Below are positions 6,283-27,772 of a stretch of DNA of 64,000 bases, piece after piece (position 1 is the first letter of the stretch; the number at the start of each line of letters is the position of its first letter). The notes below the pieces were generated by a model, which was not told the origin of the DNA, made no database searches, and was given only the letters and a program-made list of their open reading frames with translations. Source of the DNA: an uncultured Candidatus Saccharibacteria bacterium (GTDB taxonomy: Bacteria > Patescibacteriota > Saccharimonadia > Saccharimonadales > CAYLGV01). Location of the stretch: NCBI GenBank assembly GCA_964394925.1, contig CAYMZG010000001.1, forward strand, positions 67,656 through 131,655. Direction: 5' to 3'. Both the position numbers and the translations under genes were made by a program.

Positions 6283-7122
6283 ATGAATAGTCAATTTGAG
6301 GCGCCTACTAGCCATGATGAGTCCGTGGTTGAGCAAACGAGCATTGTTGATTCTTATTGGGTCCGTATGTATCCAAAAATCAACGGTGCCGCTAGTGTAG
6401 TTGAAGCTGCCTCGGGTTTGCTGACCGGTAATATAAGTGTTGCGGTTGATGGTATGCATGGTACGGCCGAAATTGTTATTGCTAATTCCCAGATTACACA
6501 CGCCCATGAGCATGATCATATTAACGATAAAAAGCGCAAGCGAATCTATACTGCCCTATCGGGGTTAGCGCTTGGTGCAGCGGGCTTAGCTTTAGCAGAG
6601 GCAACCGGCGTAGCCGATTGGCAATCAGACAACCAAGTGATGGAGACGGTCAGTTGGCTTTCATCGGGTGTTGCAGCAACATCAGCATGGGCCGCCGGTA
6701 CTGCCCTCGTAAAGCGCATACGTTCAAAATACCACCGTTATTTTCACGCCCCCCTTACCGAAACTGAGCATGACGTAACGAGGCATGTATTGCTTCTGGA
6801 TGTAACTGCATCAACCCTGGCATTTACTAGTGCGAGTGCCCGTATTGCAACGCAGATCCTTCAAAGCAAGGGTTACTCGGGCCTCGATACCGAAATGCTC
6901 GAGCATAGCATTGGAGTTGCGAGTGGCCTGTACGGAGCGTACTTATTTAGACCAACGAAATCCAACCTCCAGCACCACAGCCACACCGAAAGCCAGGAAA
7001 CCTTACCTCCCGCTGTTGAAGAAATGGAGCAAATACAGCCACGACAGCGTGTTTTGGCTCGCATGTTTGGCAGAAAAGCTCTCAAAGAAAACATCGATAC
7101 AATGACAGACACAGAAAACTAA
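6283..7122 (+). CDS. Hypothetical membrane protein, His-rich loop
   Basis: 279-aa ORF with HAHEHDH and hydrophobic segments. No confident family assignment. Confidence 0.45.
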   Translation: MNSQFEAPTSHDESVVEQTSIVDSYWVRMYPKINGAASVVEAASGLLTGNISVAVDGMHGTAEIVIANSQITHAHEHDHINDKKRKRIYTALSGLALGAAGLALAEATGVADWQSDNQVMETVSWLSSGVAATSAWAAGTALVKRIRSKYHRYFHAPLTETEHDVTRHVLLLDVTASTLAFTSASARIATQILQSKGYSGLDTEMLEHSIGVASGLYGAYLFRPTKSNLQHHSHTESQETLPPAVEEMEQIQPRQRVLARMFGRKALKENIDTMTDTEN

Positions 7123-7243
7123 GAGGTAACTCGACTACTATGCATCCTACGTTAGATACGTTTTGATGTCTTGAGATAGATTACCTTAGAGGAAATACTT
7201 TGCATTATATACCTTTATATGTTGTGTTAAAATTAAAGTATCT

Positions 7244-8026
7244 ATGGCAGAACCAACTGATGCAAGAAATCAACTAGACACTTTCGTAGTGCCCTTCGAA
7301 GAACAAACTTTAAGCTACGAAGCTGCCGTTCAGGCAGGAGTTATCTTCAGAGAGGGCATGGAAAACCTGTTCCTTCAAAATATGGAGGTCAGCATTCAGG
7401 CTGATCACAAAGATGGTGGTCCGCTGCATGCTGATGTCCGTCTACTCATTGAGGGTAGGGACTCATCAAAACTCCGAATTATAGTAAGAAAAAATAACCC
7501 CGAACACACAGATGATGAGGTAGTAGGCAGGCCACTTTATAGGATTCATATAACTGAAGAAAGACCAGATCGTTCAGACGGCACAATAATTTTTTATAGC
7601 TTCCACGAAAGCAGCAGTCTGGTAACTAGAAGGGATGTTTCTGAAGATTGGGAACAAGAATTGAAGCTGCGAAGACAACTCGAACCAATGCCTGATTTTA
7701 CAGGAATGAGCCGAGCAGAAACTGCTGCTTATTTTGACAAGGCTGCTGCTCGCTCACAGGAGAGAGTCGCAAATCTAAATTTAGAAGTTGAAATGGGTAT
7801 TAATGACCAGCCAGTTGGAGTAGAAGAGGTTGAGGCGTTGCTTGAATTACTACAGAGTGCTATACCACTATCTGAAGCCGACTGGGAACTTATGCAAATA
7901 ACGAAATATGACGGTTTTGATGGAGAAAATTGGGATAGTTCTCAAGAAACTGATGATAATGCAAATCGAGTTAGCAGAATTCGAAAAGCTGCTAGCACCC
8001 TTTTGAATCTTATTCGAAAAAGATAA
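7244..8026 (+). CDS. Hypothetical acidic protein
   Basis: 260-aa ORF convergent with the RT gene. No recognisable motif. Confidence 0.45.
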   Translation: MAEPTDARNQLDTFVVPFEEQTLSYEAAVQAGVIFREGMENLFLQNMEVSIQADHKDGGPLHADVRLLIEGRDSSKLRIIVRKNNPEHTDDEVVGRPLYRIHITEERPDRSDGTIIFYSFHESSSLVTRRDVSEDWEQELKLRRQLEPMPDFTGMSRAETAAYFDKAAARSQERVANLNLEVEMGINDQPVGVEEVEALLELLQSAIPLSEADWELMQITKYDGFDGENWDSSQETDDNANRVSRIRKAASTLLNLIRKR

Positions 8027-8195
8027 CCGTTTGACACTATTTGAGAGACGAAACAAGCCCATTCAGGCTCTAATTCAGTAATTCAAACATTTGGTGCGCA
8101 TTTACAGAATTTGCTCAAACTCTTCAATTCGCTCATGGATGATAACATATTCCGAGCTCTTACAATACCCGAACCACGGGAGATGTTAGGAAAAG

Positions 8196-9536
8196 TTATT
8201 TATTAGCTTCGGGTTTGGTAAAAAGCTCCTTTAGGTGCTTCTTATCCTCGTTCGTATTTATATTGTCTTTAACACTTTGGAGCTTGGTCTCGAACTTACT
8301 GAGACCTAGTGCCTTCAACTTCTTCTGGAATGTTCGGTCAGGATGCTTAAAGCTCAGCCCAAAGCTATCTACCAATTCTTCAATGGCTCTTGTATACACA
8401 AGGTTGATATTGAAGTAACTCGACTTAACTACCTTATCAGCTGATGTAAACCAGTATGTATTTGCCCAGGAATTACATATGCGCTCCAATGTTTCCAGTT
8501 TGTAGCCCAAAGACTTATTCATGTACTTTTTGTTCTTTAATATGGTCCTAATCTTGGTTGATGTTTTCTTGAACGCCCCGGCTGACGGATAAAGCCTACT
8601 CGCCTTAAAATGAATACCCAAGAATTCAAAATCATCAGTATTACAGACATATGATTTGCTCTTGTGTTTCTTGGCTTTCAGAATAGTCCGGGCTTGCAGC
8701 GGGTACAATTCCAGTTGCAGCTTTGCCACTTCCTCTCTCGCTATTTTGTCAGCCTCAAGAGCATCCTCAAGACTTTTAGTTAGTACCACAAAGTCATCTG
8801 CATACCGTATGAGCTTGAAACCTTTGTCCAATAGCACACGGTCAAAATCTTTTAAGTAGATGTTGGAGAACAACGGCGACAATATACCACCCTGGGGAAT
8901 ACCATACTCTAGGTCGGGGAATAGCTCTGATATTTCCTTTGAACCATGCTTTTTGCGCAAGGCTTGAATGTTACCTATTTCCTGGGCGAGACTAGCGCTT
9001 ATTAAATCATTGAGTGTTGTGTCCTTGGATAGCGCCGGAAAGACCATCTGGTCCAAAAGTATGTCACGCTTAACCTCGCCAAAGTAGTTCTTAATATCTC
9101 CCTTGTAGCAGACCGTATAGCCCTCACTAATGAGCCGATTTATTTCGCTTATCGCTTTTAGTAACCCTCGGTCCTTAATGTATGCATAGCTTGCATCGTT
9201 ATGGACATTGAAAGCCTTCTCTAGCACTTCGTGTATTTCAATCTCAATAGCTTTCTGTACCACCCGGTCGGCTACGGTTGCAACACGGATAGGTCGCTTT
9301 TTGCCCGTAAACCCTTTTGGTATTGCCACGCCTCTAATCTTAGAAAACTTATAACCACCCTTAGACAAGAGCTTGTCTCGGATATTATCCAAGTTAGCGT
9401 CAAGGTCAGCCTTGAAGGCTTGGATGGTCGTATTGTCTATGCCGTAAGAAAGCTTATTGCGGCGTAAAGACCTCCAGGCATTATTCAGCTGGTCTTTCTC
9501 TGCTATTCGTTGTAGTCGTGTAGTTGCATTGGGCAT
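8196..9536 (-). CDS. Stand-alone reverse transcriptase, group-II-intron-like/UG-type (447 aa)
   Basis: RT motifs: IPKGFTGKKRPIRVATVADRVVQKAI, SYAYIKDRG, GDIKNYFGEV, GIPQGGILSPLFSNIYL, RYADDFVVL, FEFLGIHF, and a thumb/X-like ICNSWANTYWF. The N-terminus MPNATTRLQRIAEKDQLNNAWRSLRRNK aligns with typical RT0 regions, so the ATG at 9536 is preferred. An alternative upstream ATG lies at 9812. Confidence 0.85.
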   Translation of the reverse strand: MPNATTRLQRIAEKDQLNNAWRSLRRNKLSYGIDNTTIQAFKADLDANLDNIRDKLLSKGGYKFSKIRGVAIPKGFTGKKRPIRVATVADRVVQKAIEIEIHEVLEKAFNVHNDASYAYIKDRGLLKAISEINRLISEGYTVCYKGDIKNYFGEVKRDILLDQMVFPALSKDTTLNDLISASLAQEIGNIQALRKKHGSKEISELFPDLEYGIPQGGILSPLFSNIYLKDFDRVLLDKGFKLIRYADDFVVLTKSLEDALEADKIAREEVAKLQLELYPLQARTILKAKKHKSKSYVCNTDDFEFLGIHFKASRLYPSAGAFKKTSTKIRTILKNKKYMNKSLGYKLETLERICNSWANTYWFTSADKVVKSSYFNINLVYTRAIEELVDSFGLSFKHPDRTFQKKLKALGLSKFETKLQSVKDNINTNEDKKHLKELFTKPEANK

Positions 9537-9597
9537 ATTATTTAACACCCTAATGCGCTTTGAGCTGTTAGACAGGGCGGTTACATATAGGTCTCCT

Positions 9598-9744
9598 CCA
9601 ACAGTAGTTTCGCTCCTGGTCATCATATGTCCAACAAAGGACATACTTGGCAGACCAGCCAACGCCACTATGATGGCGAGATACCACCTGCTCAGCAGAT
9701 GCAACAGCGAACTGTTACTCCTACCGTTTTGTTCCGCAGGGCAG
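9598..9744. repeat. 147-bp direct repeat, RT-proximal copy
   Basis: Identical by eye to 9904-10050; offset is exactly 306 bp. Confidence 0.9.
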
Positions 9745-9903
9745 TGGTCGATTTTCACATCTGACCCCTGGGTAGAACACAAATTGCTGCTCGGTTGTTG
9801 TGCGATTTGCATCGAAACCCCCGTCTCCTTCACGCTATTAGTTTTGTAAGTGGTCGTCTCAAAGCTTTGGGTGTCACCGCCAGCGACCTTAATGCGTGTT
9901 ACA

Positions 9904-10050
9904 CCAACAGTAGTTTCGCTCCTGGTCATCATATGTCCAACAAAGGACATACTTGGCAGACCAGCCAACGCCACTATGATGGCGAGATACCACCTGCTCA
10001 GCAGATGCAACAGCGAACTGTTACTCCTACCGTTTTGTTCCGCAGGGCAG
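9904..10050. repeat. 147-bp direct repeat, promoter-proximal copy
   Basis: Identical by eye to 9598-9744. It begins about 7 nt downstream of the predicted -10 box. Confidence 0.9.
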
Positions 10051-10057
10051 CCCTTAC

Positions 10058-10066
10058 ATTATAGCA
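10058..10066 (-). promoter_or_regulatory. Extended -10 promoter (TGCTATAAT) for the RT leader
   Basis: The minus strand reads ggggTGcTATAATgtaaggg|ctgccc. The predicted TSS coincides with the first bases of the upstream repeat copy. Confidence 0.5.
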
Positions 10067-10129
10067 CCCCTGTTGGTGAGACTCCGTTGTATAAATAGCC
10101 AATTTTTGGGGCTGAATTTACCAAAGCTT

Positions 10130-11260
10130 TTAAAAGCTCAGCCACTCTTCATTCTGGACAGCACCACGGTTCTTGATGCGAATACCTGGTTCGTCTGTCA
10201 CTTGACCTATTGCTTGAGCCACGACACCTGCTTGTGCAGCTTCCGCTAACACCTTTTCAGGTTCTGGTGTAGCGATAACCATTCCAGAACCCATGTGCCA
10301 TTTACCGTAGGCTTTTTCGTCATCAAAACCTCGTAACCGCTGAACTTCAAGCATTATTTTTGGTGGTGTAATCGGACTATCTAACGTAACACCTAAGCCA
10401 GAAGGTTCAAGCATTCGTCCTAACTTGCTAGGCTGACCGCCGCCAGTTATATGTGCCACGCCAGTCACTTTTGCCTTTGGCTCTTTTTCAATGTCGTATC
10501 CACCAGTTAATTCACTGACAAAACCTGAGTAAATAACCGATGGCTTTTGCACCAATCTACCCAGGCTAAGTTCACCAAGTTCTGCAATAACTTCATGTTG
10601 CCATTCTGGTCCATAGTGTTCCAGCATCGCTTTACGAACATCGGTTATCCCGTTAGAACGGAAACCATGCTCAGCTAGACCAACAAGCGTGTCACCAGGC
10701 TGTATTTGATGTCCAGTCAACATACGCTCTTTATGTGCAAACCATAAGACTGCTGCACCCCAGTTATAGTTAAAGTCACCATAACCACCAACCCTATCAC
10801 CCAGTTCGGCAACCTCGCCGTTCACAACCACAACTCTTGCAGCTTTTGCCGCATCTACATAACCTTGTCCAAGCTGCCGTACAGCATCGCGAGTGTGTTC
10901 TGTGTCGTTAAGCTGCCTAACATCAAGAATTGAGCCAATGGCAATTGGTTCTGCGCCACGCACTACCGCATCGTCACAAACCATAGCGAATAAGTCATGC
11001 GCAACAACCGAGTGGTCATCAAGCCGTTCAGAAACTTCTACTTTAGTGCCTACGCCATCAAATGCTAGGTTCATATACATATTGCCGAGGTCTTTCAGCG
11101 CAGTTGCAGGGATAGCCCGTAGACCTGAGAATGACTCATGAAACTCTACCAATAACCCTGGTCGGTTATCGTGTGTCATTTTTGATGCTTCGTAGAGCAT
11201 CCTCGAAACATCATCTCCTAGTTCAATATTCACATCTTGGATAGGTCCGCGTTCAGCCAT
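10130..11260 (-). CDS. purM: PurM-like AIR synthase family protein (phosphoribosylformylglycinamidine cyclo-ligase-like)
   Basis: DGVGTK motif (AFDGVGTKVEV), DLFAMVCDD and AHITGGGQ. The ATG at 11260 is preceded by AAAGGAG and a TATAAT box; the ORF-track start at 11317 is probably too long. Confidence 0.7.
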   Translation of the reverse strand: MAERGPIQDVNIELGDDVSRMLYEASKMTHDNRPGLLVEFHESFSGLRAIPATALKDLGNMYMNLAFDGVGTKVEVSERLDDHSVVAHDLFAMVCDDAVVRGAEPIAIGSILDVRQLNDTEHTRDAVRQLGQGYVDAAKAARVVVVNGEVAELGDRVGGYGDFNYNWGAAVLWFAHKERMLTGHQIQPGDTLVGLAEHGFRSNGITDVRKAMLEHYGPEWQHEVIAELGELSLGRLVQKPSVIYSGFVSELTGGYDIEKEPKAKVTGVAHITGGGQPSKLGRMLEPSGLGVTLDSPITPPKIMLEVQRLRGFDDEKAYGKWHMGSGMVIATPEPEKVLAEAAQAGVVAQAIGQVTDEPGIRIKNRGAVQNEEWLSF

Positions 11261-11535
11261 AAAACTCCTTTTCATAAGATTATAGATACCTATCACCGCA
11301 AACCAAAGCAGTAGCACTTTTAATAAGCATAAAACGGGGGGCGGGTCGCCTTTGACCCCTGTTAAAGGTACTCCGCTGTATAAATAGCGAATTTATGGGG
11401 GTAGATTTTACCAAGCGTTTTTTGGACAGAAAAAAGCAATACCGAATTTTTGGGAACAACTTTCAAAATACGCTTTTTGCGCCAAGAAATGGGCGACTCG
11501 CGTAATAGTATTCGGCGTAAGCTGGTACTGGTTTA

Positions 11536-12396: not shown

Positions 12397-14049
12397 ATGG
12401 CTGAGCTAAACAATACTCAGAAATTATTAGAACTACTCCAAGCAGGTCAACCAAAGTCACCGGCTGATGTTGACACTGGTACTGTTCGCTATGCGTTGTA
12501 TGCTCGCAAGTCAACCACTAGCGAAGACAGACAGGCGTCTTCTATTGAGGACCAAATTAAAGAGTGTATGGAGAATGTCGTATCTCCTAATAACCTTAAT
12601 ATCGTAAAGGTCTATGACGAAAGCTTCTCAGCAAAAGTAGCTGATACGCGCGTGAAGTTTAATGCAATGATTAGCGAGATTGAGAACGGTCGTATTGACG
12701 GCGTTATTGCATGGCATCCTGATAGGCTCTCACGAAATATGAAAGAGGCTGGTGCAATCATTGACCTTGTAGATAGAGGTCTAATTAAGGACCTACGATT
12801 TAGTACATTTACTTTTGAGAATACCCCTGCTGGCAAAATGCTCCTGGGCATAACTTTCGTCATGGCAAAGCAATACTCAGAGCACCTCTCGGAGTCAGTG
12901 GACCGAGGCAATAAGCGAACGGTCGTGGAAAGAACTGAGTTTATTGGCAAATTCAAGCATGGTTATATTGTAGATATTGACCGCGCATTCCAACCCGACC
13001 CACACAACTTCACCAAGGTTAAAGAGATGTTTGCCATGGCGCTCGCCGGTAAATCACAGAAGGATATCCGACTATGGATAAATGAGCAGGGTTATACGGT
13101 CCAAAAACGCGCAGGTGGTGAATATGTGCAGCACATCTGGGATAAAGATGATGTGTCTAAGCTACTCAGAGACCCTCACTATGCCGGGGTACACAAATGG
13201 GGCAAAAACCTGACCGACCTAGTTGAGGCTTACGACTTTGAGCCGATGATAACCGTTAATGAATTCCTCAGGATAAATAAGATAGATAGCCTGAACTCAT
13301 CAAAGGTATTGGCAATTAGTAGACCAAGGAGCGGTGATATAGGCGCTGACCTGCTTCGTGGTATGGTCTACTGCTCTATGTGTAATAAGACCTTTACCTC
13401 AATGCTTATACCAAAACGAGACAAAGTTACTAAGGAAATCATCCATGCTCGCTACTACTATAAATGCGAGACAGAAGGCTGCTCTATGGTTAATAAATCT
13501 GCTCGCGGTGGGCTGGTCATAGAGGCTGCGCAACAGTTCTTTAGGCAATACCTATTCGTTACTAAGAGCAACTATGCCTATTACGCGAAGGAGGCTGAAA
13601 AAGAGGCTAACCGTAAGGCGACTGAGTTTACTAGCGCCATAGCAAGACTAAAGCTGCTCATTGCCAACAAAGAGAAATCATATGAGGAGGTAAAAGACCT
13701 CATCATAAAGAACCCCGAGCTAAAAGACCACTACGACCTGGCAAAATATGCTAAGGAAATTAAAAAGCTCAAGAAAGACTATAAGGAGGCAGCCGACTCA
13801 CGCGACAAAATTAAGAGCGCTATTCCAAGTTTCGAGGAATACCTCAAACTCCTGGAGTCGACTCCCGTTATTCTGAGTAAAATACGCGACATGAAGACCA
13901 TGGATGCTCTACTGCGTGTTTTCTTCTCTAATTTCACGATTACACCGGGCGAAAAAGACTTTCGTAAGGGGTCAACTGTTACCTATAAACTAAACGAACC
14001 CTGGCAAGGGTTCGTTGATGACGATGATTTCGTTTCTGGTGCCAGATAG
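12397..14049 (+). CDS. Large serine recombinase (rec1)
   Basis: N-terminal resolvase-type catalytic region (YALYARKSTTSEDRQ...DGVIAWHPDRLSRN), a recombinase domain, a zinc ribbon (CSMCNK...YYKCETEGC) and a coiled-coil tail. The last 4 codons and the stop lie in the shared att-like core/IR. Confidence 0.9.
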   Translation: MAELNNTQKLLELLQAGQPKSPADVDTGTVRYALYARKSTTSEDRQASSIEDQIKECMENVVSPNNLNIVKVYDESFSAKVADTRVKFNAMISEIENGRIDGVIAWHPDRLSRNMKEAGAIIDLVDRGLIKDLRFSTFTFENTPAGKMLLGITFVMAKQYSEHLSESVDRGNKRTVVERTEFIGKFKHGYIVDIDRAFQPDPHNFTKVKEMFAMALAGKSQKDIRLWINEQGYTVQKRAGGEYVQHIWDKDDVSKLLRDPHYAGVHKWGKNLTDLVEAYDFEPMITVNEFLRINKIDSLNSSKVLAISRPRSGDIGADLLRGMVYCSMCNKTFTSMLIPKRDKVTKEIIHARYYYKCETEGCSMVNKSARGGLVIEAAQQFFRQYLFVTKSNYAYYAKEAEKEANRKATEFTSAIARLKLLIANKEKSYEEVKDLIIKNPELKDHYDLAKYAKEIKKLKKDYKEAADSRDKIKSAIPSFEEYLKLLESTPVILSKIRDMKTMDALLRVFFSNFTITPGEKDFRKGSTVTYKLNEPWQGFVDDDDFVSGAR

Positions 14050-14260
14050 CCAGCATATTCCAAACAATAAATGCCACTAATGTAGACGTGTACAAGCTTG
14101 AAGCTCTGGCACAGCAATTTAACCTAGCGGGAGATTTGCTCCAAGCATAAAGCTGGAAGGTAAATCACAGCCTGTGCAGGTTCTGTTTAATGACAAGTGC
14201 TTGGTAGCGCTTTGCTGCTGCCAATGTTGCTAGGCAATAACAGTGAGGTATCAGTGAGAA
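14037..14260. repeat. IR-A left arm (224 bp), begins with core TGGTGC
   Basis: Perfect reverse complement of 24003-24226 when compared block by block. Confidence 0.9.
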
Positions 14261-14910
14261 CTTAATTCAGATAGTAGCACCTTGAAGTTAAGCTCACCTA
14301 TATTCTTGGGCGAGATAACAACATTCTGTGCGCTGCTTAGTGTCATATAACTGTGGCTGACTAATTCAGGTATAGCTTGGAGCCAAAGAGCCTTGCTCCT
14401 CATAATTACAATCGTTTTATTTTGCTTTATTGCTTCCTTAACAAGCTCAAAGGAGTAAAGCTGTGAAGGAGTAAAAGCGTTGATATGTTTGTAGTTAATT
14501 GAGTGATAGGGAAAGTATTCAATCATCATAATTTTATCTCTAAGTGCTTCTAGGGACACGCCAGCATTTAATAGTGGTTTAAGTTTTGCGCTCCACCATT
14601 TATAGCCACCCGTTTTTTCTAGCCCGCCGTTAAAGTAATAGAATGGTGATTCAAAGGGGTCATTTAGATTACCCCGACACCCTTCAATAAATGCAGTGAG
14701 TTTCATATTCACGCTTACATCTGAATCAGTAAAACCTGGATTAAGTGCCAAGAACACTACCTTTGCATTATTAAGACCACCTACAAGAGGTTCAGGTAGC
14801 GTATCAAGTCGCAAGCCAATGAAGTTTTTGTGATTCTCAATAACTGCTAAGTCATCATCAAGAATATAAGGTTCTCTAAATGGTAGTGACTTCCAAGGAT
14901 TACTTCGCAT
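14251..14910 (-). CDS. Hypothetical protein, possible uracil-DNA glycosylase superfamily member
   Basis: VVFLALNPGF resembles the MUG/UDG motif-1 (G-x-NPG) and EYFPYHS loosely resembles motif 2. The assignment is weak. The last 10 nt lie inside IR-A. Confidence 0.45.
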   Translation of the reverse strand: MRSNPWKSLPFREPYILDDDLAVIENHKNFIGLRLDTLPEPLVGGLNNAKVVFLALNPGFTDSDVSVNMKLTAFIEGCRGNLNDPFESPFYYFNGGLEKTGGYKWWSAKLKPLLNAGVSLEALRDKIMMIEYFPYHSINYKHINAFTPSQLYSFELVKEAIKQNKTIVIMRSKALWLQAIPELVSHSYMTLSSAQNVVISPKNIGELNFKVLLSELSSH

Positions 14911-14996
14911 ACATATATGTTATTACATTCGTTTAGAAGTAATAGCTTTTACTTTTATTAGTTCCCCTATACCACTACAAAGTCTATAATCAGCTT

Positions 14997-15848
14997 ATGG
15001 GATTATTATCTAAACTATTCAATTCGGACAATCAAAAGGAACCAAAAATTACTGTAACCGTAACTGGCGGAATAGAAGATGACGGTTATAAACCAGCGAA
15101 GCGTGAGTTTAGTGATAATGAAGCTGGTTTACTAGATACTATTAACACTAATGAAACAGTAGTTCCCACGCAAAAACTTCCGTTTTCTAATGTATGTCCA
15201 TACTGTGGAGTAGTCCAATCCAAGCCAGTAGGACGCAAGAAGAACTGTTCAGATTGTAAAAAGCCTATCTATGTAAGAACTACGCAAGACCTTTTTCCTT
15301 CTAGTGCATTAACGGAAGAACAAGTAGCTCACGTTGATTTTTATATGGGAATGAAGAACTACCTAATGGCTACGAAAGATGATTTCAAAAGGCACGAAAA
15401 GCTCTTACAGAAGAAATGGAATACACCAAAAGTTAATACCTACGACGTACTTTGGTCAATGTACAACGACACAGAGCTTTTAAAGCGAAATATAGATAAA
15501 TCCTACACTGGAAAGTGGGCTACTATACAGTTATTACGTAATCATCAGATTGCTACTTTTGAAGCAGCAGAGTATCAAGCAGCAAGAGGTAATGACCCAA
15601 CCCCTTACCTAAAAACAGCACAAGAGTATTCACTAAAAATGGCAAAGTTAAATGAATACGCAAAAGGTCTTACAGTTCAAAGTTATTCTTGTTGCGACGC
15701 CTGTACAAAGTTCCACGATAAGACGTTCACATTAGACTTTATTGAAAAAACACCAGTACTACCTATTAAGACCTGTACTCACCCTTTTAGGGACGGTTCT
15801 AAGTTTGTTCTGTGTACTTGCAGGTACAGTGAATACACCGAATACTAA
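14997..15848 (+). CDS. Hypothetical Cys-rich (zinc-ribbon) protein
   Basis: CPYCG...CSDCKK and CCDAC...CTHPF...CTCRY clusters. No known family recognised. Confidence 0.5.
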   Translation: MGLLSKLFNSDNQKEPKITVTVTGGIEDDGYKPAKREFSDNEAGLLDTINTNETVVPTQKLPFSNVCPYCGVVQSKPVGRKKNCSDCKKPIYVRTTQDLFPSSALTEEQVAHVDFYMGMKNYLMATKDDFKRHEKLLQKKWNTPKVNTYDVLWSMYNDTELLKRNIDKSYTGKWATIQLLRNHQIATFEAAEYQAARGNDPTPYLKTAQEYSLKMAKLNEYAKGLTVQSYSCCDACTKFHDKTFTLDFIEKTPVLPIKTCTHPFRDGSKFVLCTCRYSEYTEY

Positions 15849-15852
15849 CAAG

Positions 15853-17355
15853 TTATTCCTTGCACAGCTCCATTAAGTAATCGTAAATCTTTACCATTGC
15901 TAGCGTGTCTAAGCAACAATAGGTTTTTAGCGACTTGTAAATATGTTGAGCTTCTTCGTTGGTTAAAGCGCCTGTAACAGCTTCATACCAGCGAATAGAA
16001 GCTGATAGTCCATTTTGTATATCAAGCTCTTTATAGCTAAACTCTGGGACTAATACCGGCAATACATATTTTATTGAGCTACTACCCTTAAAATCGTGAT
16101 GTACATAATGCTGTTTACTAAACACGTCCATTAAATCAAATACACGATTATTCATATCTGTAAGATAGTCGGAGTATTCGGGATACGACTTAGCCATTTC
16201 TACATTACGTCCAGTTTCAAAAGATTTATTCCAGACTATTACACTCCCTGTATCGCCAAGGTTTTCCTTCAAACTTCGCAGCAACCCTTCCATTGGAGCT
16301 TTCTCGTTATCGGTCGCTAAGTATTCAAAATGCTCTAGTTCACTATTTTTATCTTTCTTTACGTGTAAAGAATACTGGAAAGGTAATTGCTGAAACGGAG
16401 AGCTACCACTAACAAGCGGTAAGGCAGTAGATACAGTTTCGTAATCCAAAAAGTAAAGTGGAAACTCTAATTCGCTGCATAGCTCTTTAATAGAATCTTT
16501 ATCAATTATAGGCTCTTTTGTTTTCGCTACTTGAACTTGATTCTTTTGTATAACGGAAAGCTTTAAGTCTGCTGGAACGTCTTTCACATCATAAATATCA
16601 CCGTCAATGAGTATTCCTAATTTCTTACCGTTAATACGAGAGATATTAAAAACAGAGTATTCGGGAATGTTTGGATTAAAATAATGAAAAGTCGGACAAT
16701 GACCAGACCTAGTTTTTAATTTACAGCTACAGGATTTAGGCTCGTCACTCCTATTAACAAGCTCCACAGCGTCATTTATCTGCTGTTTGATTGTAGGCAT
16801 AATTTTTTCTACTTTTTCAGTTACATCTATTGTTATTAAAAGTTCTTTAGGGTTGATTGCACCTCTACGAACGTACTCTTTATTCAAGTGAATTACTTGT
16901 ACATTGGAGATGAGATACCCTGATTCTTCAAAAGCTATACGTTGAAAAGTAACATCATATATATGCTCTGGCTTAATTGAGTTTGTAGACTTAACTTCGT
17001 ATAGCGTCCAAGTATCATCAGCATTTTTCTTGATTACGTCAGCCATTGCTAATAAGCCAGTTTCAGTAACTACTGTTGCTTGAAATAGAGTTTTAGCATT
17101 CTCTGCAACTAAGACATCAGTGTCTTCTTTTGCTTTTCTACCTCTTGTAGTAATTAGTGTAGCTTCTGGGAATAATTCACGGGCTTTTGCTTCAACCTCG
17201 TTACCTTGTTCTAGGCGACGGTTAATAGCTTCTTCTTCATCAGTAGGGACTAGTTCTGGTTTATGTTTCCAAAGCCAAAGGTAACTAGGGCAACACTGAT
17301 ATTTCAAGAAATCTGACTTTGATAAATATGTTTTTGTTTTTGTGGCGGTTGTCAT
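15853..17355 (-). CDS. DUF2779 domain protein (predicted PD-(D/E)xK/Cas4-like nuclease N-terminus)
   Basis: The N-terminus YLSKSDFLKYQCCPSYLWLW is characteristic of DUF2779, and there is a Cys cluster (CSCKLKTRSGHCP). The start overlaps the upstream stop (ATGA). Confidence 0.7.
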   Translation of the reverse strand: MTTATKTKTYLSKSDFLKYQCCPSYLWLWKHKPELVPTDEEEAINRRLEQGNEVEAKARELFPEATLITTRGRKAKEDTDVLVAENAKTLFQATVVTETGLLAMADVIKKNADDTWTLYEVKSTNSIKPEHIYDVTFQRIAFEESGYLISNVQVIHLNKEYVRRGAINPKELLITIDVTEKVEKIMPTIKQQINDAVELVNRSDEPKSCSCKLKTRSGHCPTFHYFNPNIPEYSVFNISRINGKKLGILIDGDIYDVKDVPADLKLSVIQKNQVQVAKTKEPIIDKDSIKELCSELEFPLYFLDYETVSTALPLVSGSSPFQQLPFQYSLHVKKDKNSELEHFEYLATDNEKAPMEGLLRSLKENLGDTGSVIVWNKSFETGRNVEMAKSYPEYSDYLTDMNNRVFDLMDVFSKQHYVHHDFKGSSSIKYVLPVLVPEFSYKELDIQNGLSASIRWYEAVTGALTNEEAQHIYKSLKTYCCLDTLAMVKIYDYLMELCKE

Positions 17356-17744
17356 AGTTCTACATTTCTTATTCGGTCAAGACGATATTTATAACTGTAA
17401 CCCTTCGTACCTGGTATATGCAAATAAGTGTTATCAAATGTGAAGCTATAAAATACCCTAAAAGTTTTATCATCTTTGTAATAGATTTTTGCAGGTTGGT
17501 TTGATACAGAGCGATATTTCAAATACTCCAAGATGTATTCCATAGATACTTCTTGTTCAAACTTTACTCGTTTAACTACAGGTTTAGTTGCAGACCTAAC
17601 AGTCTTCTGTGTATTCCATTCACCGCACGAAGTACATCTGCCTGACCAAGTTTCAGTCACAGCGTCGCAGTTGCTGCACTGATACCAATTTTTATTAGAA
17701 GTAGATTTTTCTTGCCGACCTATTTGCTGCCTAAACGAGTGCAA
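17352..17744 (-). CDS. Zinc-ribbon protein; the coding frame very likely extends upstream to 17882 or beyond (see slippery site)
   Basis: CSNC-x10-CTSC ribbon. The track start is a TTG, but the same frame stays open upstream to 17939 and encodes a second ribbon (ICSVC-x17-CYLC) with no ATG/GTG/TTG start. Confidence 0.6.
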   Translation of the reverse strand: MHSFRQQIGRQEKSTSNKNWYQCSNCDAVTETWSGRCTSCGEWNTQKTVRSATKPVVKRVKFEQEVSMEYILEYLKYRSVSNQPAKIYYKDDKTFRVFYSFTFDNTYLHIPGTKGYSYKYRLDRIRNVEL

Positions 17745-17878
17745 CGTTTTGCCAGTTACTTTTTCGTAACATAGATAGCACTCTGGTCGTCCTTTGAAAG
17801 GAAATAGCCACGACCATTTTACTTCCTCACAAACGCTACAAATCCGCTTATCGCCTTTTTGTACTGATTCAATAACGG

Positions 17879-20800
17879 CTAAGAAACCGTCAATAGCCCC
17901 TTGCGTATATTCTTTTTTTTTACGACGTTGGCTAATAAGCCGTCAAGTTGCTTTATGGGTTCTTTTCCAAGGTTAAACTTGTTCAGTCTTAGAAACTTAT
18001 AGCCATAGCCTTCAAGTACTTTTTGCCTATAAACATCATCTGCTTTTAGATAACTTTCGTAGTTACTTTCATTTACTTCATCTAGGTTTATGAAATGTTC
18101 ATTAAATCCGTCATATTCAATAACTATTTTTTGTTTACCGAATGTAAGCAAGAAGTCTACTTTATACATTGGGTGGCTGTAATTTTTATCTAGCGACTTC
18201 AAGTATTCGCCTAGCGGGAACTGTGGAACTAGTTCTAGTTGGTCTTTGTTCTTTTGGTAGAACTCGGTCTGATAGAAGTAGTTCTGTACTAGAGGTTCCA
18301 TCGCAGACTTCTCGTCAGTACCACCGATTTGATGAGTAGTGGTGTTAAGAGCATTTTCATAATAAAGTAGCGCAGTTTTAACTTCGCCCCAATACTCATT
18401 GACAGGCTTACTAAGTACAAAATGTATTGTTTCTTTTGCTCGGCTGAAACCAACATTTAGACGTTGCTCACGTGTCCCGAACTCCTTCCCAGTCTTAACT
18501 GATTCTTCCATTGAAATTGGGAAAATATATCGGTGTGTATTCTCATCACTTTTTTCAACCATACTGTACAAAAGATAATCTCGTTCTTCGCCTTGGCAGG
18601 TATCAAAGGTCATCACCTTTAGGGAGTGTTCGTGTAGCCAGTCAGAAATCCCCGAGTCATTTAGCAGGTTGTTAATAAACGTGGCTTGCTCTCTGTGTGG
18701 TGTAATAACGCCTAATGAGCCAGCATAATCCTTGTTTTTGAGTGCTGTAAATTGCTCTAGGATATAGTTAGCTTCCGCAGAGTTTGTCAGCCTGTATTGT
18801 TCGGTGACACCTTCTGTCTCAACTTGCGTAAACTTGATAACTTCACTAATAGGTAATGAACGAGCTTTCATACACTGTAAGTTATTGTCATAGAAATACT
18901 TGTTTGAATAACCAATGATTTCTGGGTAACAACGAAAATGCTTTTTCAGCATTGTTTGATAATTTGTAATGAATCTACAGAAGTCCAAAATTGAGCGTTT
19001 AACATTAAAGTTTTCATCTACCCTTGCAGAGTAAACTGAACTGTAGTCTTTAGCCTGTGCGTCAATTGAAGCCCTTAAAGTTTTCAGTAGGTTACTGCGA
19101 TACTTGCTGTTAGTAAGTACGCTAGCGTTTCCAGCCTTTACGTTACTAAACTGCTTCTCATCACCAAGTACCAAGATTTTTTTGCCACGAATCAAAGCTG
19201 GTAGAGCTTGGGCAATACTAACCTGGGAAGCTTCGTCAATTATTACTAAATCAAACAAGCCTTTTTCTAAAGGAATATACGTTGCGTAATCTCTAATGCC
19301 AGCTAGTATGCAGGGGAACGCTTGCTTTAAGTCGCTGAAAAGAACTTTAGGAAACTTCTGCTTAGATTTGAGCATAGATTTCAGCGTTCTAATATCAGCA
19401 GCGTGGTGGTCTACATAGTCAATAATACGAGTATCTAAAATGTTAGCCATTTTAGCTGCATTAAGTAGGTACAGGCTTTCGGAACTATCTGCAAAGTTAT
19501 CTGTAGCTATAACTTCAAACTTATCGGCAAGTTTCTGTGCTTCTTTCTTATCATTCAGGTAATCAGCTAGTTCGCTTTCACTCATATCTATGAATCGCTT
19601 ATCAACTGCGTCTACAGATTCAGTGCCTTCTGTAAGGTTTATGGCTTGTGCAACATCAGGGTAGCTGAAAATGAATTGCTCTACTGTGCTTCTATGATTT
19701 AGAGCAGTTTCTAGTTCTTCAAGCTCACCAGCAAGTGATTTTAGTTTTTTGATTTCTTCATCAGGGCTTGATAACAATACATTTACGCTGGATTTAATAA
19801 TTGTAAGCACCTGTTCGTTAGCGTGAGCGATTTCCTGCAAATTACGAGCATTGCTTAATGCGGTAATGGCACTGTTAATGTCTTTGAGTTGCGATAGCTT
19901 GTAGCTCTTAATGAAGTCATTTTCATTTGGTTTACTTAGTAGATTTAATACTTTTTTAATGTTTTCTACTTCATCGCCTGGCAGGAGCAATAGCTCTAGG
20001 ACAGGTTTCCACGAACTTTCATCTAGTCCTTGTTGCTGCAATTTACCCTTTAGAAAGTTCAGTGTGTCTACGAACCCTACCAGCTCTGTAACGTGTTTTT
20101 CGGGCGAAGATAGGTTTAGATACGGAAGTTGAGTTTTAAGCTCCCTTACAAGGGCTTCTATTGAAGATTTCTTGCCAGAATAGCCAAGAAGCCTAGACCG
20201 TAGAGATTGTAGCTTTGAAATAAAGTCATTTAGTGAAGTATGTAATTCGCTTAGGCTTACTTCACATTTCAAAGATTGCTCAATAATATCTTTTGAGTTG
20301 TAGATATTAGGGGCAAACATTCTGACCGCATTTACTGTGTCCCTAGAGCGATAGAAATTATCTTCTGCTGCAAATACGTCAGCTATAGTACTAGCTTTGC
20401 TTAATGACTTAGTTCCGCTATATGATGATTCCTTCAAATAAGCTATACATTCATCTAGGTTTTCATTTATATCATCTACTTGCTGTTTTAGCTGGTTTTG
20501 ATTCTCAACACTTTGTTTCTTGTACCCATTGATAAACGCAGCGAAGTCTTTACTCAATGAATGCCGTGATTTTGCGTATGCGTCAGTAGCTAGAATAATT
20601 TGCTCTAAGTTTGATAAAGCTGGTGAATTAGCGAATGGAATCAAATACAAAACTTTGCTTTGTTTCAAGGCTAATACTGATTTATGTACGTCCTTGAAAG
20701 ATTCAATTAGTTCATCATCAACGGCACTAACCCAATCAATGCCTGTGTACTTTTCTTCTGACTTAATAACTGATTTAACATCAGATAAACTAATCTTTTC

Positions 20801-22549
20801 GCCAACACCAATTACCGTTTCTAGTGATTCTGTGGCTTCGTCCTTTGCTTCTTTTTCAGCAGTTTTAAAATCATTAACTCTACTTCTATATGCTCTAAGA
20901 TGTTCACGCACTTTTTCTAGTGCTTGTCCTTCAATAACCTTAGCTAGACCTCGGCTAGATTTTCCTAATCGCAGAATAGGATTTTGGAAGTTTTTGTCGT
21001 GCCTAATAGTACTTAATGTGTCAGTAATCTTGTCTTGAACTACATCAAGAGCTTCTTCTTTGTCTGAAAGCACAAGGACAGATTGACCTTCCAGGAGTGC
21101 CTTACAAACAATCGCAGTAATTGTATGGCTTTTACCAGTTCCTGGTGGACCTTCAAGTATTGCAACTTTACAGTCGTCTTTTTGCAGGGCTAGTAAAACT
21201 TGTTTCTGCTCTTCATTTAAGGCTATAGGGCTATCAACAATCAGCTTTTCTAAGATTGTTTTTTCTTCCCATTCTTGTGCAACGTCTTCAATAAAGTTTT
21301 GTGGATTTTCAGTAACGAAGCTGTCAATCAGTTCTGCAAAGGCTTCCGTAAGTTCGCCTTGGTCTTCAATAATTTCTTCATAATCATTTATTAAGGATTC
21401 GTCAGACTTATCAAAGAGAAATAGCTGTAAACGATTAGATATGCGTGTAACCATATTATTAGCAATTTGACTTGACGTTTCTTTAATGTCTACGGGCTTA
21501 GTTAGTCCCAATACGTCCCGAACATCATCTACAATTTTTTGTAACTGTGGCAATAAATCTTTTTTATTTTCAAAATAGATAATTCGGTCAAACGTACCAC
21601 CAACACTTTCATTACTTGAAGTAGCGACATTGTTTTGCTGAACTACAAACTCAATGGCTTTGATATTCACAAATACTCGGCTATCAAAACTGATTGAGAG
21701 TTTAGAATCCTCTTGTTCCACAGAGATAGGTACATAGAATAATGGAAATGAGAAGTTATTAACGCCAATCTCGCCGAAATATACATATAACTCTGTTTTA
21801 TCAAGCATATCTTTATTTCGGTTGAGCTGTAGTATTTCAGCATATGCGTCTGACGCACTAAACTCTTTGAAAAACTCCTTTAGAGCAGCCTTTACTGCAA
21901 GTGAGTCAAAAATACCTGCCAAAGCTTTAGAAAGGGACTTAGAATCCTGTGTAGCAGCAAAGAACTCCTCTAGGACTGTAGCTATACTATCTTCTGCAAG
22001 TGCATAGACCTTTGCAGTAGCGTCCGTTTCAAGCTGGTATAAGCTACTTTCAGCACTCCATCCAGCAGCTTCTAGTGATTGTTCAATGTCATTCAGGAGC
22101 GGGGCGATAACCTTTGTATCAAACTTATTCTTTATAACTTCTAGAGAAGTTTCAAAATAGTTATCATAATCCTTTTGATTATCTAGCCTAAGTTGATTTA
22201 TTTCCTTCGTGATTTCTTTTAGGGTGTCAATAATTTCATCATCGGATAGCTGGTCAATTCGCTGTTCAAGTAAAGAAACTAATCTATCAGAAATCTTAGT
22301 GGTGTATTTACCAAGTTCTACATCAAAACTTTCTTTTGCAAAACCACTTATGAAGTTTTTATAAAGTTCTCTATAGAGGGTCGGGTACTTATCAAGATAA
22401 AGCCCTGTAGACAAACCTTTATTTACCCTAGTTGTAAGGTTACGCTTTGGCTGTGTGCGTTTTTTGAAATCTGTTTCCAAAAAAGCCATAAAGTACTTGG
22501 CTACTTCGGTAACAAAATCTTTACTAATTACAGGGGGCTTCGTGTCCAT
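17879..22549 (-). CDS. Giant SF1 (Upf1/DNA2-like, AAA_11/AAA_12-type) helicase with C-terminal DUF559/Vsr-like endonuclease domain
   Basis: Walker A ILEGPPGTGKSHTI, Walker B LVIIDEASQ, motifs TFDTCQGEERDY and NVGFSRAKE. The C-terminal YKVDFLLTFGKQKIVIEYDGFNEHF is typical of DUF559/REase folds. About 600 aa are inserted between Walker A and B. Confidence 0.8.
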   Translation of the reverse strand: MDTKPPVISKDFVTEVAKYFMAFLETDFKKRTQPKRNLTTRVNKGLSTGLYLDKYPTLYRELYKNFISGFAKESFDVELGKYTTKISDRLVSLLEQRIDQLSDDEIIDTLKEITKEINQLRLDNQKDYDNYFETSLEVIKNKFDTKVIAPLLNDIEQSLEAAGWSAESSLYQLETDATAKVYALAEDSIATVLEEFFAATQDSKSLSKALAGIFDSLAVKAALKEFFKEFSASDAYAEILQLNRNKDMLDKTELYVYFGEIGVNNFSFPLFYVPISVEQEDSKLSISFDSRVFVNIKAIEFVVQQNNVATSSNESVGGTFDRIIYFENKKDLLPQLQKIVDDVRDVLGLTKPVDIKETSSQIANNMVTRISNRLQLFLFDKSDESLINDYEEIIEDQGELTEAFAELIDSFVTENPQNFIEDVAQEWEEKTILEKLIVDSPIALNEEQKQVLLALQKDDCKVAILEGPPGTGKSHTITAIVCKALLEGQSVLVLSDKEEALDVVQDKITDTLSTIRHDKNFQNPILRLGKSSRGLAKVIEGQALEKVREHLRAYRSRVNDFKTAEKEAKDEATESLETVIGVGEKISLSDVKSVIKSEEKYTGIDWVSAVDDELIESFKDVHKSVLALKQSKVLYLIPFANSPALSNLEQIILATDAYAKSRHSLSKDFAAFINGYKKQSVENQNQLKQQVDDINENLDECIAYLKESSYSGTKSLSKASTIADVFAAEDNFYRSRDTVNAVRMFAPNIYNSKDIIEQSLKCEVSLSELHTSLNDFISKLQSLRSRLLGYSGKKSSIEALVRELKTQLPYLNLSSPEKHVTELVGFVDTLNFLKGKLQQQGLDESSWKPVLELLLLPGDEVENIKKVLNLLSKPNENDFIKSYKLSQLKDINSAITALSNARNLQEIAHANEQVLTIIKSSVNVLLSSPDEEIKKLKSLAGELEELETALNHRSTVEQFIFSYPDVAQAINLTEGTESVDAVDKRFIDMSESELADYLNDKKEAQKLADKFEVIATDNFADSSESLYLLNAAKMANILDTRIIDYVDHHAADIRTLKSMLKSKQKFPKVLFSDLKQAFPCILAGIRDYATYIPLEKGLFDLVIIDEASQVSIAQALPALIRGKKILVLGDEKQFSNVKAGNASVLTNSKYRSNLLKTLRASIDAQAKDYSSVYSARVDENFNVKRSILDFCRFITNYQTMLKKHFRCYPEIIGYSNKYFYDNNLQCMKARSLPISEVIKFTQVETEGVTEQYRLTNSAEANYILEQFTALKNKDYAGSLGVITPHREQATFINNLLNDSGISDWLHEHSLKVMTFDTCQGEERDYLLYSMVEKSDENTHRYIFPISMEESVKTGKEFGTREQRLNVGFSRAKETIHFVLSKPVNEYWGEVKTALLYYENALNTTTHQIGGTDEKSAMEPLVQNYFYQTEFYQKNKDQLELVPQFPLGEYLKSLDKNYSHPMYKVDFLLTFGKQKIVIEYDGFNEHFINLDEVNESNYESYLKADDVYRQKVLEGYGYKFLRLNKFNLGKEPIKQLDGLLANVVKKKNIRKGLLTVS
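17912..17921 (-). promoter_or_regulatory. Slippery run A9G containing the A_AAA_AAG heptamer in the zero frame
   Basis: The minus strand reads GTA AAA AAA AAG AAT. The -1 frame (or a +1A transcript) continues without a stop into the zinc-ribbon ORF. Confidence 0.5.
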
Positions 22550-23049
22550 ATTTTGTGAGCTTGCTTACGAATAACTATACAACATTTACTCCTGTAAATC
22601 CTGCTTAAGTTAAAAATGGCAGGAAATACTTATTTAAGCCCTCTACAGCCCTATATGAAATGTCCTAAACTATAGATGTGGAAGAACTGCGTAAAAAAAT
22701 TTGAGGAGCATTAAAGAATATGCCACCCATTGACTGGTCGGACACTAGACCGCCAACTGAACACGCAGTTCACGCTATGATTAGGAACTTACACGCTGCT
22801 GCTGGCACAGACGCAGACAACACTCTAAAACGCAAAGAACAGTGAGATAACAGTGAGCAAATAGTGCGATAGTGCCTGACGCTGGTTGAGCTTTAAGGCT
22901 ACAGATTTTTCTGACAATGCCGCAAAACCCATTTGTGTTATTTTATATATACCTTGTACTAGGTACATACCTTTTACTTATACAGACCTAGTACTATACA
23001 AATCTAGTACTATACATAACGTAATAGTGCCATTTCATTACGTGAACTG

Positions 23050-23391
23050 TCACGAATCCTCTTGCAGGGCGTAATGTTTATCATTATGGGTACGGTTAAT
23101 AATTACACCAGAGTAACTTTCAACCTCGTCAATGATACTGTCTAACAAGAACCCGTAGAAAGATGAATGCTTGCCATACTCAAACTTATCTTTCCAGCGT
23201 TCACTGGATTTTTCTTTATAGCTCCCAGGATACAGGCCGTATTCACCCTTATGTGCGTGGAATAGTACAAACTTGAAATCCAAGTATAGGTCAATTGGCA
23301 TTATATGTACCTTAACTCTGTATGTGCCTTCGTCTAAACTTGTAGGGGCACTATATACTTCTACTTGTTCAAGATAGAGTTCTACCTGCAT
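23050..23391 (-). CDS. Hypothetical protein (113 aa)
   Basis: ORF overlaps the upstream gene by 10 nt (operonic). No recognisable motif. Confidence 0.45.
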   Translation of the reverse strand: MQVELYLEQVEVYSAPTSLDEGTYRVKVHIMPIDLYLDFKFVLFHAHKGEYGLYPGSYKEKSSERWKDKFEYGKHSSFYGFLLDSIIDEVESYSGVIINRTHNDKHYALQEDS

Positions 23392-23798: not shown

Positions 23799-23923
23799 TT
23801 AACCCTACCTTTATATAGAGCGAACAGACCAGTCGGCATACTGGCTCGCTTTTATTTAGGAGTAACGAAGCACACCTACGCTCCGTTAAACGCTGTTTGT
23901 AAGAGTCACTTTCACTTACCTAC

Positions 23924-23952
23924 AGTATACGCTAATGCTTATGGAAAGTCAA
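23924..23952 (-). promoter_or_regulatory. Sigma70-like promoter (TTGACT-17-TATACT)
   Basis: The minus strand reads TTGACTttccataagcattagcgTATACT. It lies just inside the segment bounded by IR-A, upstream of the 138-aa gene. Confidence 0.55.
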
Positions 23953-27760: not shown

Positions 27761-27772
27761 ATAAACTCCTAA

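Follow-up and report, generated by a model that had tools for sequence, protein, structure and literature searches.

Within the 64,000-nucleotide stretch of contig CAYMZG010000001.1 analysed here (hereafter the window), which derives from an uncultured Candidatus Saccharibacteria bacterium, a reverse transcriptase (RT) gene is preceded on the same strand by a leader containing two long direct repeats. A first reading of the letters (hereafter the original prediction) had proposed that this gene and its leader form an RT plus template-RNA system. The source genome is a 1.04-Mb, 98%-complete draft in 23 contigs, in which the RT and the leader are each present in a single copy. The RT gene lies on the minus strand at positions 8196–9536 (coding region 8199–9536, stop codon 8196–8198) and encodes a protein with a YADD motif, as described originally, and a length of 446 amino acids rather than the 447 given at that time. 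Beyond the stop codon, a terminator-like hairpin is present at 8055–8070 on the minus strand by consensus match only.

Read in the direction of transcription, the leader is composed of a −10-like box, a 7-base spacer, a repeat (A), an inter-repeat segment (B), a second repeat (A′) and a tail that ends at the ATG of the RT gene, all on the minus strand. The 147-nt repeat A (9904–10050), which forms the predicted 5′ end of the transcript, is 100% identical to the RT-proximal copy A′ (9598–9744), also of 147 nt, and the spacing from A to A′ is 306 nt; the coordinates and the identity claimed for the two copies are both confirmed. Segment B (159 nt, 9745–9903) contains the 5′ strand of a helix designated P1, a highly conserved core and a Shine-Dalgarno sequence with an ATG, as revealed by alignment with the related loci L004, L006 and L008. 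The 61-nt tail (9537–9597) carries the 3′ strand of P1 and is kept in 10 loci. A perfect match of 147 nt is beyond chance, and A/A′ is the sole long direct repeat of such quality in the 64-kb window. Tandem Repeats Finder does not report the pair when run on the window because there are only 1.48 copies of the unit.

The extended −10-like box TGCTATAAT, recognized by sequence reading at 10058–10066 on the minus strand, is located 7 nt upstream of A, where the original prediction had placed it. A consensus promoter scan finds no −35 element for this box and for that reason does not list it as a promoter. A second −10-like box, TGTGAAAAT (9751–9759, minus strand), is weak, was noticed by eye only, and lies 6 nt before A′. 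In the related locus L184, the sequence TGGTACAAT is found at the matching place (approximately 2330–2340), and by eye these boxes are 6–10 nt before A′, mirroring the box before A. The second box may be the start of a shorter A′-tail-RT transcript, and it would be present inside every unit of a multimer.

The A-B-A′-tail-RT layout is found in 14 distinct loci with RTs that are 28–84% identical to the window RT. Across this family, the repeats are 92–234 nt in length and 94–100% identical, and the periods range from 282 to 474 nt. In a lineage with a period of 354 nt, the repeats are 143 nt and 94% identical in L006, 144 nt and 97% identical in L008, and 144 nt and 95% identical in L179. The corresponding values are 100 nt, 100% and a period of 282 nt in L184, and 138 nt, 99% and 376 nt in L199. 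Two contigs begin within A, giving repeats of at least 67 nt (100% identical, period 305 nt) in L004 and at least 127 nt (100%, 469 nt) in L183. Among the Bacteroidota, repeat length, identity and period are 139 nt, 95% and 388 nt in L090; 112 nt, 99% and 364 nt in L091; 112 nt, 100% and 363 nt in L052; 92 nt, 97% and 335 nt in L011; 234 nt, 99.6% and 473 nt in L086; and 117 nt, 97% and 348 nt in L175.

The control set comprised approximately 230 group-II-type RT loci, including about 150 from genomes and metagenomes and 76 from viral contigs. The genome and metagenome pattern scans were dominated by ordinary group II RTs and were used mainly as negative controls; none of these approximately 150 loci has such a repeat. 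Only one of the 76 viral-contig loci carries one, and this locus, L199, proved to share the layout. The repeat-bearing leader is therefore tied to the RT in the 14 loci, an association that the original prediction had put forward as a test. The RT clade is rare and patchy in its distribution, with no relatives in 400 other genomes of the host's phylum and one (L175) in 400 genomes of Bacteroidia. Viral contigs yielded no close relatives and a single distant member, L199 (positions 1885–2462 of an IMG/VR contig), whose RT has YIDD. Full-text literature searches returned no description of this RT/leader family, although their coverage was incomplete and this absence is no proof of novelty.

The repeat is real and not an assembly accident: independent assemblies and an isolate genome show the layout again. 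The L179 locus has been assembled identically (L180) or near-identically (L181, with 3 differences in 670 nt) from two further independent metagenomes, and L011 belongs to the isolate genome of the cultured strain Mucilaginibacter galii CCM 8711. Moreover, six short contigs of close relatives all stop 35–113 nt before the RT ATG, which corresponds to the A′/tail branch point. The A′/tail edge is the point where the repeat breaks the assembly graph, and the six contig ends fit a real repeat. In L086 (2875–4208), which comes from a long-read assembly, the RT is split into two overlapping open reading frames (ORFs), and an assembly error may also account for the single nucleotide by which A and A′ differ in this locus.

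The sequence of A diverges between loci, the window being separated from the 354-nt lineage by 55–64 differences. The two copies of any one locus are near-identical, and changes specific to L008 or to L179 are present in both copies. L006, L008 and L179 share one fixed 12-nt block of difference between A and A′, which is not located at adenines; for L179-type loci, the A-type of the block is TGC TTC GCC and the A′-type is TAG TGT CGC.

RVT_1 is the only Pfam domain in the window RT, and the GIIM maturase domain (PF08388) is absent from it in the Pfam search. Among curated models, TIGR04416 (group II RT/maturase) matches it best, with 201.8 bits, a score below the cut-off of 300, and the protein carries the group-II PQG..SP motif. 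The top PADLOC matches are a generic RT model and an RT-Cas1 model, followed in third place by RT_UG17 at 125 bits. Defence and retron models score poorly: the Drt2 model NF041746 gives 59 bits against a cut-off of 390 (the PADLOC Drt2 model, with E = 7e-16, is far below the top matches), the retron St85 model gives 46 bits against a cut-off of 235, and the Drt3a and Drt4 models are far below their respective cut-offs. The nearest solved structure is that of the free-standing G2L4 RT (9d5x, E = 8.5e-29). In a maximum-likelihood tree, the window RT falls within a 35-member clade that is split from the maturase-bearing group II RTs and RT-Cas1 at 100/98 support. Rfam models yield no match at E ≤ 1 in window positions 7000–11500, group II intron RNA included, and none at E ≤ 0.1 in 10 related loci. 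From its domain, profile and tree placement, we classify the window RT as a free-standing group-II-like enzyme and not as the RT of a mobile intron, a diversity-generating retroelement (DGR), a retron or a Cas-linked system. This placement outside the maturase-bearing group II RTs, with no ribozyme, is one on which the original prediction depended. None of the refuting outcomes listed with that prediction was encountered, and its interpretation is supported in part.

Several features of the leader point to a structured RNA with a defined 5′ end. Among the non-Bacteroidota loci examined, A starts 6–10 nt after a −10-like box in the window, in the 354-nt lineage and in L184, and more weakly in L199. 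In L006, L008, L179 and L184, the boxes, 9 nt before A, read TGGTATAAT. This spacing supports the 5′ edge of the upstream repeat as the expected transcript start, and in this respect the start predicted on the first bases of the upstream copy is supported by comparison across loci. The 521-nt window leader folds at −188.4 kcal/mol (z = −3.57 relative to shuffles). Helix P1 was recovered independently by an unguided RNAalifold run and by single-sequence folding. Its 5′ strand (UGACACC, GCUUUGAG, GAC and UUACA segments) occupies 9845–9876, and its 3′ strand (UGUAA ... CUCAAAGC ... GGGUGUUA) occupies 9543–9585 and ends 7 nt before the RT ATG, both on the minus strand. When scored on four full sequences, 98% of the cells in P1 are paired and there are 5 compensatory pairs, compared to 29–40% paired and 0–1 compensatory pairs for slid controls. 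The two-sided changes include GCUUUGAG/CUCAAAGC, GCUUCGAG/CUCGAAGC and GCUUCGGG/CCCGAAGC.

Because the 5′ part of B (B5′) pairs with the tail, the sequences 3′ of the two repeat copies pair with each other. The resulting inverted repeat, P1, surrounds the core of B together with A′ and resembles the a1/a2 pairing of retrons. In the Bacteroidota loci and in L199, the same two regions appear by eye to be complementary via quite different sequences. The six-locus whole-leader alignment is too poor for a consensus fold, and duplex energies were therefore used for the Bacteroidota loci. Among the 14 loci tested against shuffles, the B5′/tail duplex energy has p ≤ 0.02 in eight and p = 0.05–0.10 in four, and it is not significant in L184 and L011. 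The local hairpin ATGTCC/GGACAT of the original prediction (9950–9945 paired with 9938–9933 in A, and 9627–9644 in A′, minus strand) is present in the minimum-free-energy fold, and this stem is part of a longer A′ hairpin that exhibits compensatory changes. These comparisons support the RT and its repeat-bearing leader as one conserved module, in which the leader is a predicted structured RNA.

The leader is not plainly non-coding, which amends the original prediction. The window's RT frame extends without interruption from position 10057 through the whole leader to the RT stop, a total of 620 codons. The 306-nt unit (102 codons) has no stop in that sense frame and 1–8 stops in each of the other frames, and the frame would therefore be endless on a head-to-tail multimer. 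A stop-free unit of this kind arises in 2% of dinucleotide shuffles (p = 0.02). Units that are stop-free and a multiple of 3 in length are also found in L006, L008 and L179 (354 nt) and in L184 (282 nt). The L086 locus, with a period of 473 or 474 nt, has a stop-free frame either way (p of about 0.0007), and it is not relied on because of the uncertain period and the long-read assembly with a broken RT. An endless ORF was rejected as a rule for the whole family, since five Bacteroidota loci depart from it, and it applies to the window, L184, the 354-nt lineage and perhaps L086.

It was replaced by a weaker rule that is universal among the loci tested, namely that one frame of A, which encodes a hydrophobic helix, runs on into B. 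In each of these 13 loci, exactly one frame of A continues without a stop for 39–114 codons of B, and a stop is reached within 21 codons in the other two. The open frame is also the most hydrophobic in 10 of the 13 loci, with 17-residue Kyte-Doolittle means of 1.55–2.45. In the window, the stretch encoding the helix, WYLAIIVALAGLPSMSFVGHMM, is located at 9927–9992 in A and 9621–9686 in A′ (minus strand), and its 17-residue mean is 2.05 compared to 0.76 and 0.25 in the other frames. A homologous helix is kept in relatives across lineages, with T conserved at codon position 2. Between the window and L006, the differences at the three codon positions number 40, 24 and 40, such that position 2 is the least variable. 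The ratio of non-synonymous to synonymous substitution rates (dN/dS) is about 0.5 in the helix frame compared to 0.6–1.1 in the other frames.

A putative start for this frame is present in the middle of B, where AAGGAG (9830–9825) is followed by an ATG (9812–9810) in the open frame; this element (9810–9830, minus strand) is conserved in the non-Bacteroidota loci. Its counterparts are AAGGAGG or AAAGAGG followed by ATG in L006, L008 and L179, GAGGAGG followed by GTG in L004, GGGAGG-N7-GTG in L184, and a similar arrangement in L199. Taken together, these features suggest a gene that begins in mid-B, crosses what remains of B and then the helix of A, and ends with the first half of B, and that would thus be circularly permuted relative to the chromosome. 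At the passage from the helix into B5′, the predicted peptide of the window reads ...TTVG-VTRIKVAGGDTQ.... The cleanest case is L199, in which the ORF from the mid-B ATG wraps around the 376-nt unit to encode 121 amino acids and stops 13 nt before its own ATG. Its A and A′ differ by one base (TTA versus TGA), which creates a stop at the end of A′ only.

Other relatives carry lesions in the same copy. In the 354-nt lineage, the fixed block of difference gives a TAG in A′ just before the helix, and the frame is endless when A occupies that place. Due to this TAG, the ORF of L006, L008 and L179 that can be read from the chromosome is 59 amino acids long and lacks the helix. L004 has a 1-nt frameshift in A′ at the spot matching this lesion, and L178 has a TAA in A′, with its own A copy off the contig. 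No frame-breaking lesion is found in any visible A copy. In six Bacteroidota loci (L090, L091, L052, L011, L086 and L175), B contains a TTG-N19-TAnnTTTG-like box, an ATG 7–19 nt further on, and then 6–7 A nucleotides. The helix frame is always −1 relative to that ATG, which suggests programmed −1 frameshifting or polymerase slippage at the A-run. The leader peptides match nothing in Pfam at cut-off. A match of the L184 helix to DUF4231, at 20 bits, was set aside as it covers the hydrophobic stretch only.

The genes near the window RT encode no Cas, maturase, nitrilase, SLATT, Avd-like or known defence protein, and no conserved accessory gene is found in any locus, where the flanks differ from one to the next. 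The original statement that the RT lacks an effector gene is probably wrong, as a conserved start and a hydrophobic-helix frame wrapping around the unit are present in the leader itself.

The best explanation for these observations is a self-contained module consisting of the RT and its template RNA. Specifically, we favour a reading, to which we assign a probability of about 0.5, in which cDNA (complementary DNA) made from the 5′ copy is transferred to A′. A single transcript would start at the first base of A and run through A, B, A′ and the tail into the RT gene. The RT would then reverse-transcribe its own leader toward the RNA 5′ end, and the resulting cDNA end, which is the complement of A, could re-anneal on the identical A′ of the same or a sister RNA. 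After this transfer, synthesis would continue through B and A again to give a B-A-B DNA made of head-to-tail 306-nt units. Alternatively, a 306-bp circle would be produced if a single A-B-A′ copy were to close on its repeats. Strand transfer is favoured because the repeat is located at the predicted RNA 5′ end, its flanks are paired, a reading frame links B to A, the lesions are confined to A′, and there is no accessory gene. As to priming, it can be imagined that the long P1 duplex is cut in such a way that its tail strand stays on B5′ and primes in the direction of A.

A further and more tentative proposal, which we consider less likely than not, is that the product is a gene. The B-A-B order would complete the reading frame that the chromosome holds in circularly permuted form, so that the RT builds, off the chromosome and via a terminal redundancy of about 100–230 nt, a membrane or repeat-protein gene that cannot be read from the genome. 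Expression of such a product would require a promoter within the unit. The encoded protein would be the likely effector, plausibly in phage defence, although a defence role for the module is only weakly supported by the genomic context.

Certain observations weigh against these proposals. The substitution signal for coding is modest, and the deficit of changes at codon position 2 is not individually significant. In the window, the mid-B ATG, A′, the tail and the RT form one 538-aa frame in the chromosomal mRNA, and the gating seen in relatives is absent. This fusion is readable because A equals A′, and we regard it as incidental because the closest relative, L003, closes the frame before the RT. 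In five Bacteroidota loci, each unit contains 1–3 stops and the period is not divisible by 3, and in the Bacteroidota loci a −1 shift at the conserved A-run is needed to bring the start codon into the helix frame. Furthermore, the open frame is on the sense strand and the chromosomal promoter is outside the unit. An internal promoter is weakly suggested by features noticed by eye, namely TGTGAAAAT in the window, TGGTACAAT in L184 and the TTG-N19-TAnnTTTG-like box in B of the Bacteroidota loci. No primer for reverse transcription is recognized and no RNase H domain is present in the RT. Two members of the clade, L173 (Pedobacter sp. Hv1) and L174 (a metagenome-assembled genome of Chloroflexia), have no detected upstream direct repeat, and the window itself provides a weak defence context. 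A single A′-like copy and a tail are retained in L173, which may represent decay or a variant form of the locus.

Four other explanations can be weighed against strand transfer. The leader might instead encode a small membrane effector that is read from the chromosomal mRNA, with the RT carrying out some other synthesis, either untemplated or on another template, and the repeats acting not in template switching but in RNA folding, in binding of the RT or in the control of translation. Such a two-part system, which we consider unlikely, would agree with the strong structure of the leader, with the termination of P1 so near the RT start codon that it could control RT translation, and with the presence of chromosome-readable ORFs containing both start and helix in L184 (67 aa), L199 (64 aa), L183 (111 aa) and, as a fusion, the window. 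However, it leaves unexplained why a duplication of 92–234 nt is kept near-identical in every lineage, given that regulation via alternative pairing requires complementarity and not identity. It also does not account for a helix frame that is open from the 5′ copy into B5′ with no preceding start codon, or for the stop or frameshift in the readable A′ of L006, L008, L179 and L004 that leaves a readable ORF without the helix. A switch at the level of DNA seems less probable still. Here, RecA-type recombination between A and A′ would generate, in a fraction of the population, an A-B-A-B-A′ array or an excised A-B circle and thereby turn on the wrap-around gene, and the RT would be accessory or unrelated. 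Direct repeats of 100–230 bp are good recombination substrates, array expansion yields the same B-A-B order, and the concerted evolution of A and A′ is as expected from unequal exchange. Nevertheless, a DNA mechanism has no need for a repeat edge that matches the −10 box spacing and hence an RNA end, nor for P1, which pairs RNA flanks, and no layout of this kind was seen outside this RT clade. In addition, all assemblies contain 1.3–1.5 units with no expanded array, including those of L179 in three independent samples.

The remaining two explanations are very improbable. DGRs are common in candidate-phyla bacteria with small genomes, and a DGR or homing retroelement, with A′ as the template repeat, A as the variable repeat and cDNA overwriting one copy, would resemble the window in having two direct repeats of approximately 140 nt that adjoin an RT, and the overwriting would keep the copies alike. 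This reading was rejected on the alignment of the copies in L006, L008 and L179, where mutagenesis of the DGR type is ruled out because the differences form the fixed 12-nt block and are not at adenines. The copies are moreover 100% identical in the window, L184, L183 and L052, and there is no target gene ending in the upstream copy, as a variable repeat at the 3′ end of a protein gene would demand. The RT has the group-II PQG..SP motif with a group II model as its best match, and no Avd-like gene is present. We give the least credence to a mobile group II intron remnant, or a duplication from assembly, that lacks any function of its own. The curated group II match at 201.8 bits favours a remnant, and the 23-contig draft state of the genome leaves room for a duplication. 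On the other hand, that score is below its cut-off, GIIM is lacking, no intron RNA is found in the window or in 10 relatives, the RT is single-copy in the genome, and its clade stands apart from maturase-bearing RTs at 100/98 support. The recurrence of the architecture in independent assemblies and an isolate genome speaks against duplication, and both explanations are refuted for the family.

The proposed strand-transfer module also needs to be compared with characterized systems, since the architecture had been thought to lack precedent, and its logic in fact has two: the A-B-A′ template of DRT10 (PMC12632851) and the repeat gene of DRT2 (PMC11100668). DRT10 consists of a UG17 RT together with an ncRNA (non-coding RNA) plus a SLATT protein, and makes tandem-repeat cDNA via an A-B-A′ template with a 4-nt A (PMC12632851). 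As in DRT10, the candidate template RNA here is in cis and 5′ of the RT, a membrane effector may be involved, and the window leader has the A-B-A′ pattern by which cDNA of A-B re-anneals on a downstream identical A′ to yield a repeating unit. However, DRT10 has an A of 4 nt and a unit of about 9 nt, compared to 92–234 nt and 282–474 nt here. The DRT10 enzyme is a class-2 UG RT that primes on its own Ser/Tyr, whereas the window RT scores 125 bits on UG17, below generic RT and RT-Cas1 models. There is also no SLATT gene near the window RT, and the unit itself carries a reading frame.

In DRT2, which consists of a UG2 RT and an ncRNA, rolling-circle reverse transcription builds the neo gene (PMC11100668, PMC12039810). 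Likenesses include a single RT gene behind a structured ncRNA in one transcript, a repeat unit that is a multiple of 3 with a stop-free frame, a gene (here a predicted one) that cannot be read from the linear chromosome, and a helix that brings the template ends together. The neo gene, however, is antisense to the ncRNA and has a promoter formed across the new junction, whereas the frame described here is in the sense orientation and no new junction sequence is formed. The jump in DRT2 uses a 3-nt ACA repeat rather than a redundancy of about 150 nt, the window RT scores 59 bits against the Drt2 cut-off of 390, and several relatives have finite rather than endless wrap-around ORFs. Our best reading is that the system works like DRT2 and DRT10 yet belongs to neither.

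Free-standing group-II-like RTs such as G2L4 (PMC12337344; Simon and Zimmerly 2008, PMC2602772) resemble the window RT in standing alone, with no ribozyme and no Cas genes, and the solved structure closest to it is that of G2L4. The relative L199 has YIDD, as does G2L4, whereas the window RT has YADD. G2L4 acts in double-strand-break repair with no dedicated template RNA described, whereas the present clade is defined by its A-B-A′ leader. A parallel also exists with the transfer of retroviral minus-strand strong-stop DNA through the R region, in which a direct repeat at the exact 5′ end of the RNA recurs downstream and 5′-end cDNA would transfer by homology. In this case, both repeats are located 5′ of the RT gene instead of one at each RNA end, there is a single copy of the element without long terminal repeats, an integrase or a target-site duplication, and the RT has no RNase H domain.

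The flanking genes offer limited guidance regarding function. Other family loci have neighbours encoding DpnII (L003), a KAP NTPase (L006), GmrSD (L011) and an integrase (L052), and L184 is accompanied by MutH, a methylase, a serine recombinase and a tRNA. Housekeeping genes flank other members of the family. Near the window RT, there are no other long repeats that would signal a CRISPR array, and no Cas1 fusion or neighbour. The upstream repeat copy begins 80 nt after the end of an AIR-synthase-like gene (10130–11317), whose product is AIR-synthase-related and may not be PurM (142.5 against a purM cut-off of 236).

The window contains other repeat-rich DNA. Positions 12397–28142, which begin 2.3 kb from the RT leader, include two large serine recombinase genes (12397–14049 on the plus strand and 24113–25744 on the minus strand) with 3′ ends in perfect 224-nt inverted repeats (14037–14260 and 24003–24226). 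A second perfect inverted pair, of 158 nt, is present at 24221–24378 and 27985–28142. Between the inverted repeats are genes for a DUF2779/Cas4-like protein, a 1556-aa SF1 helicase, a zeta-toxin-like kinase and an ABC-F ATPase, and the region has the look of mobile or defence DNA that is invertible or was integrated in tandem. Elsewhere, a 132-nt direct repeat with 70% identity occurs at 54860–54991 and 56622–56753, 1762 nt apart.

The family yields clean, testable predictions, with a member available in the cultured strain M. galii CCM 8711. If the proposed gene assembly is correct, then RNA-templated assembly of genes is not peculiar to DRT2 and has arisen at least twice, independently. The second origin would belong to the RT lineage nearest to that of group II introns, and would rely on a homology-driven strand transfer that is otherwise known from retroviruses. 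A clade of free-standing group-II-like RTs, for which no described role was found, would also acquire a function, and the module would constitute a natural system that writes defined DNA repeats of 300–470 nt from a programmable RNA. Genes of this type would be hidden from linear annotation by circular permutation across a direct repeat, and genes made by RTs would be present even in a 1-Mb genome of the candidate-phyla type.

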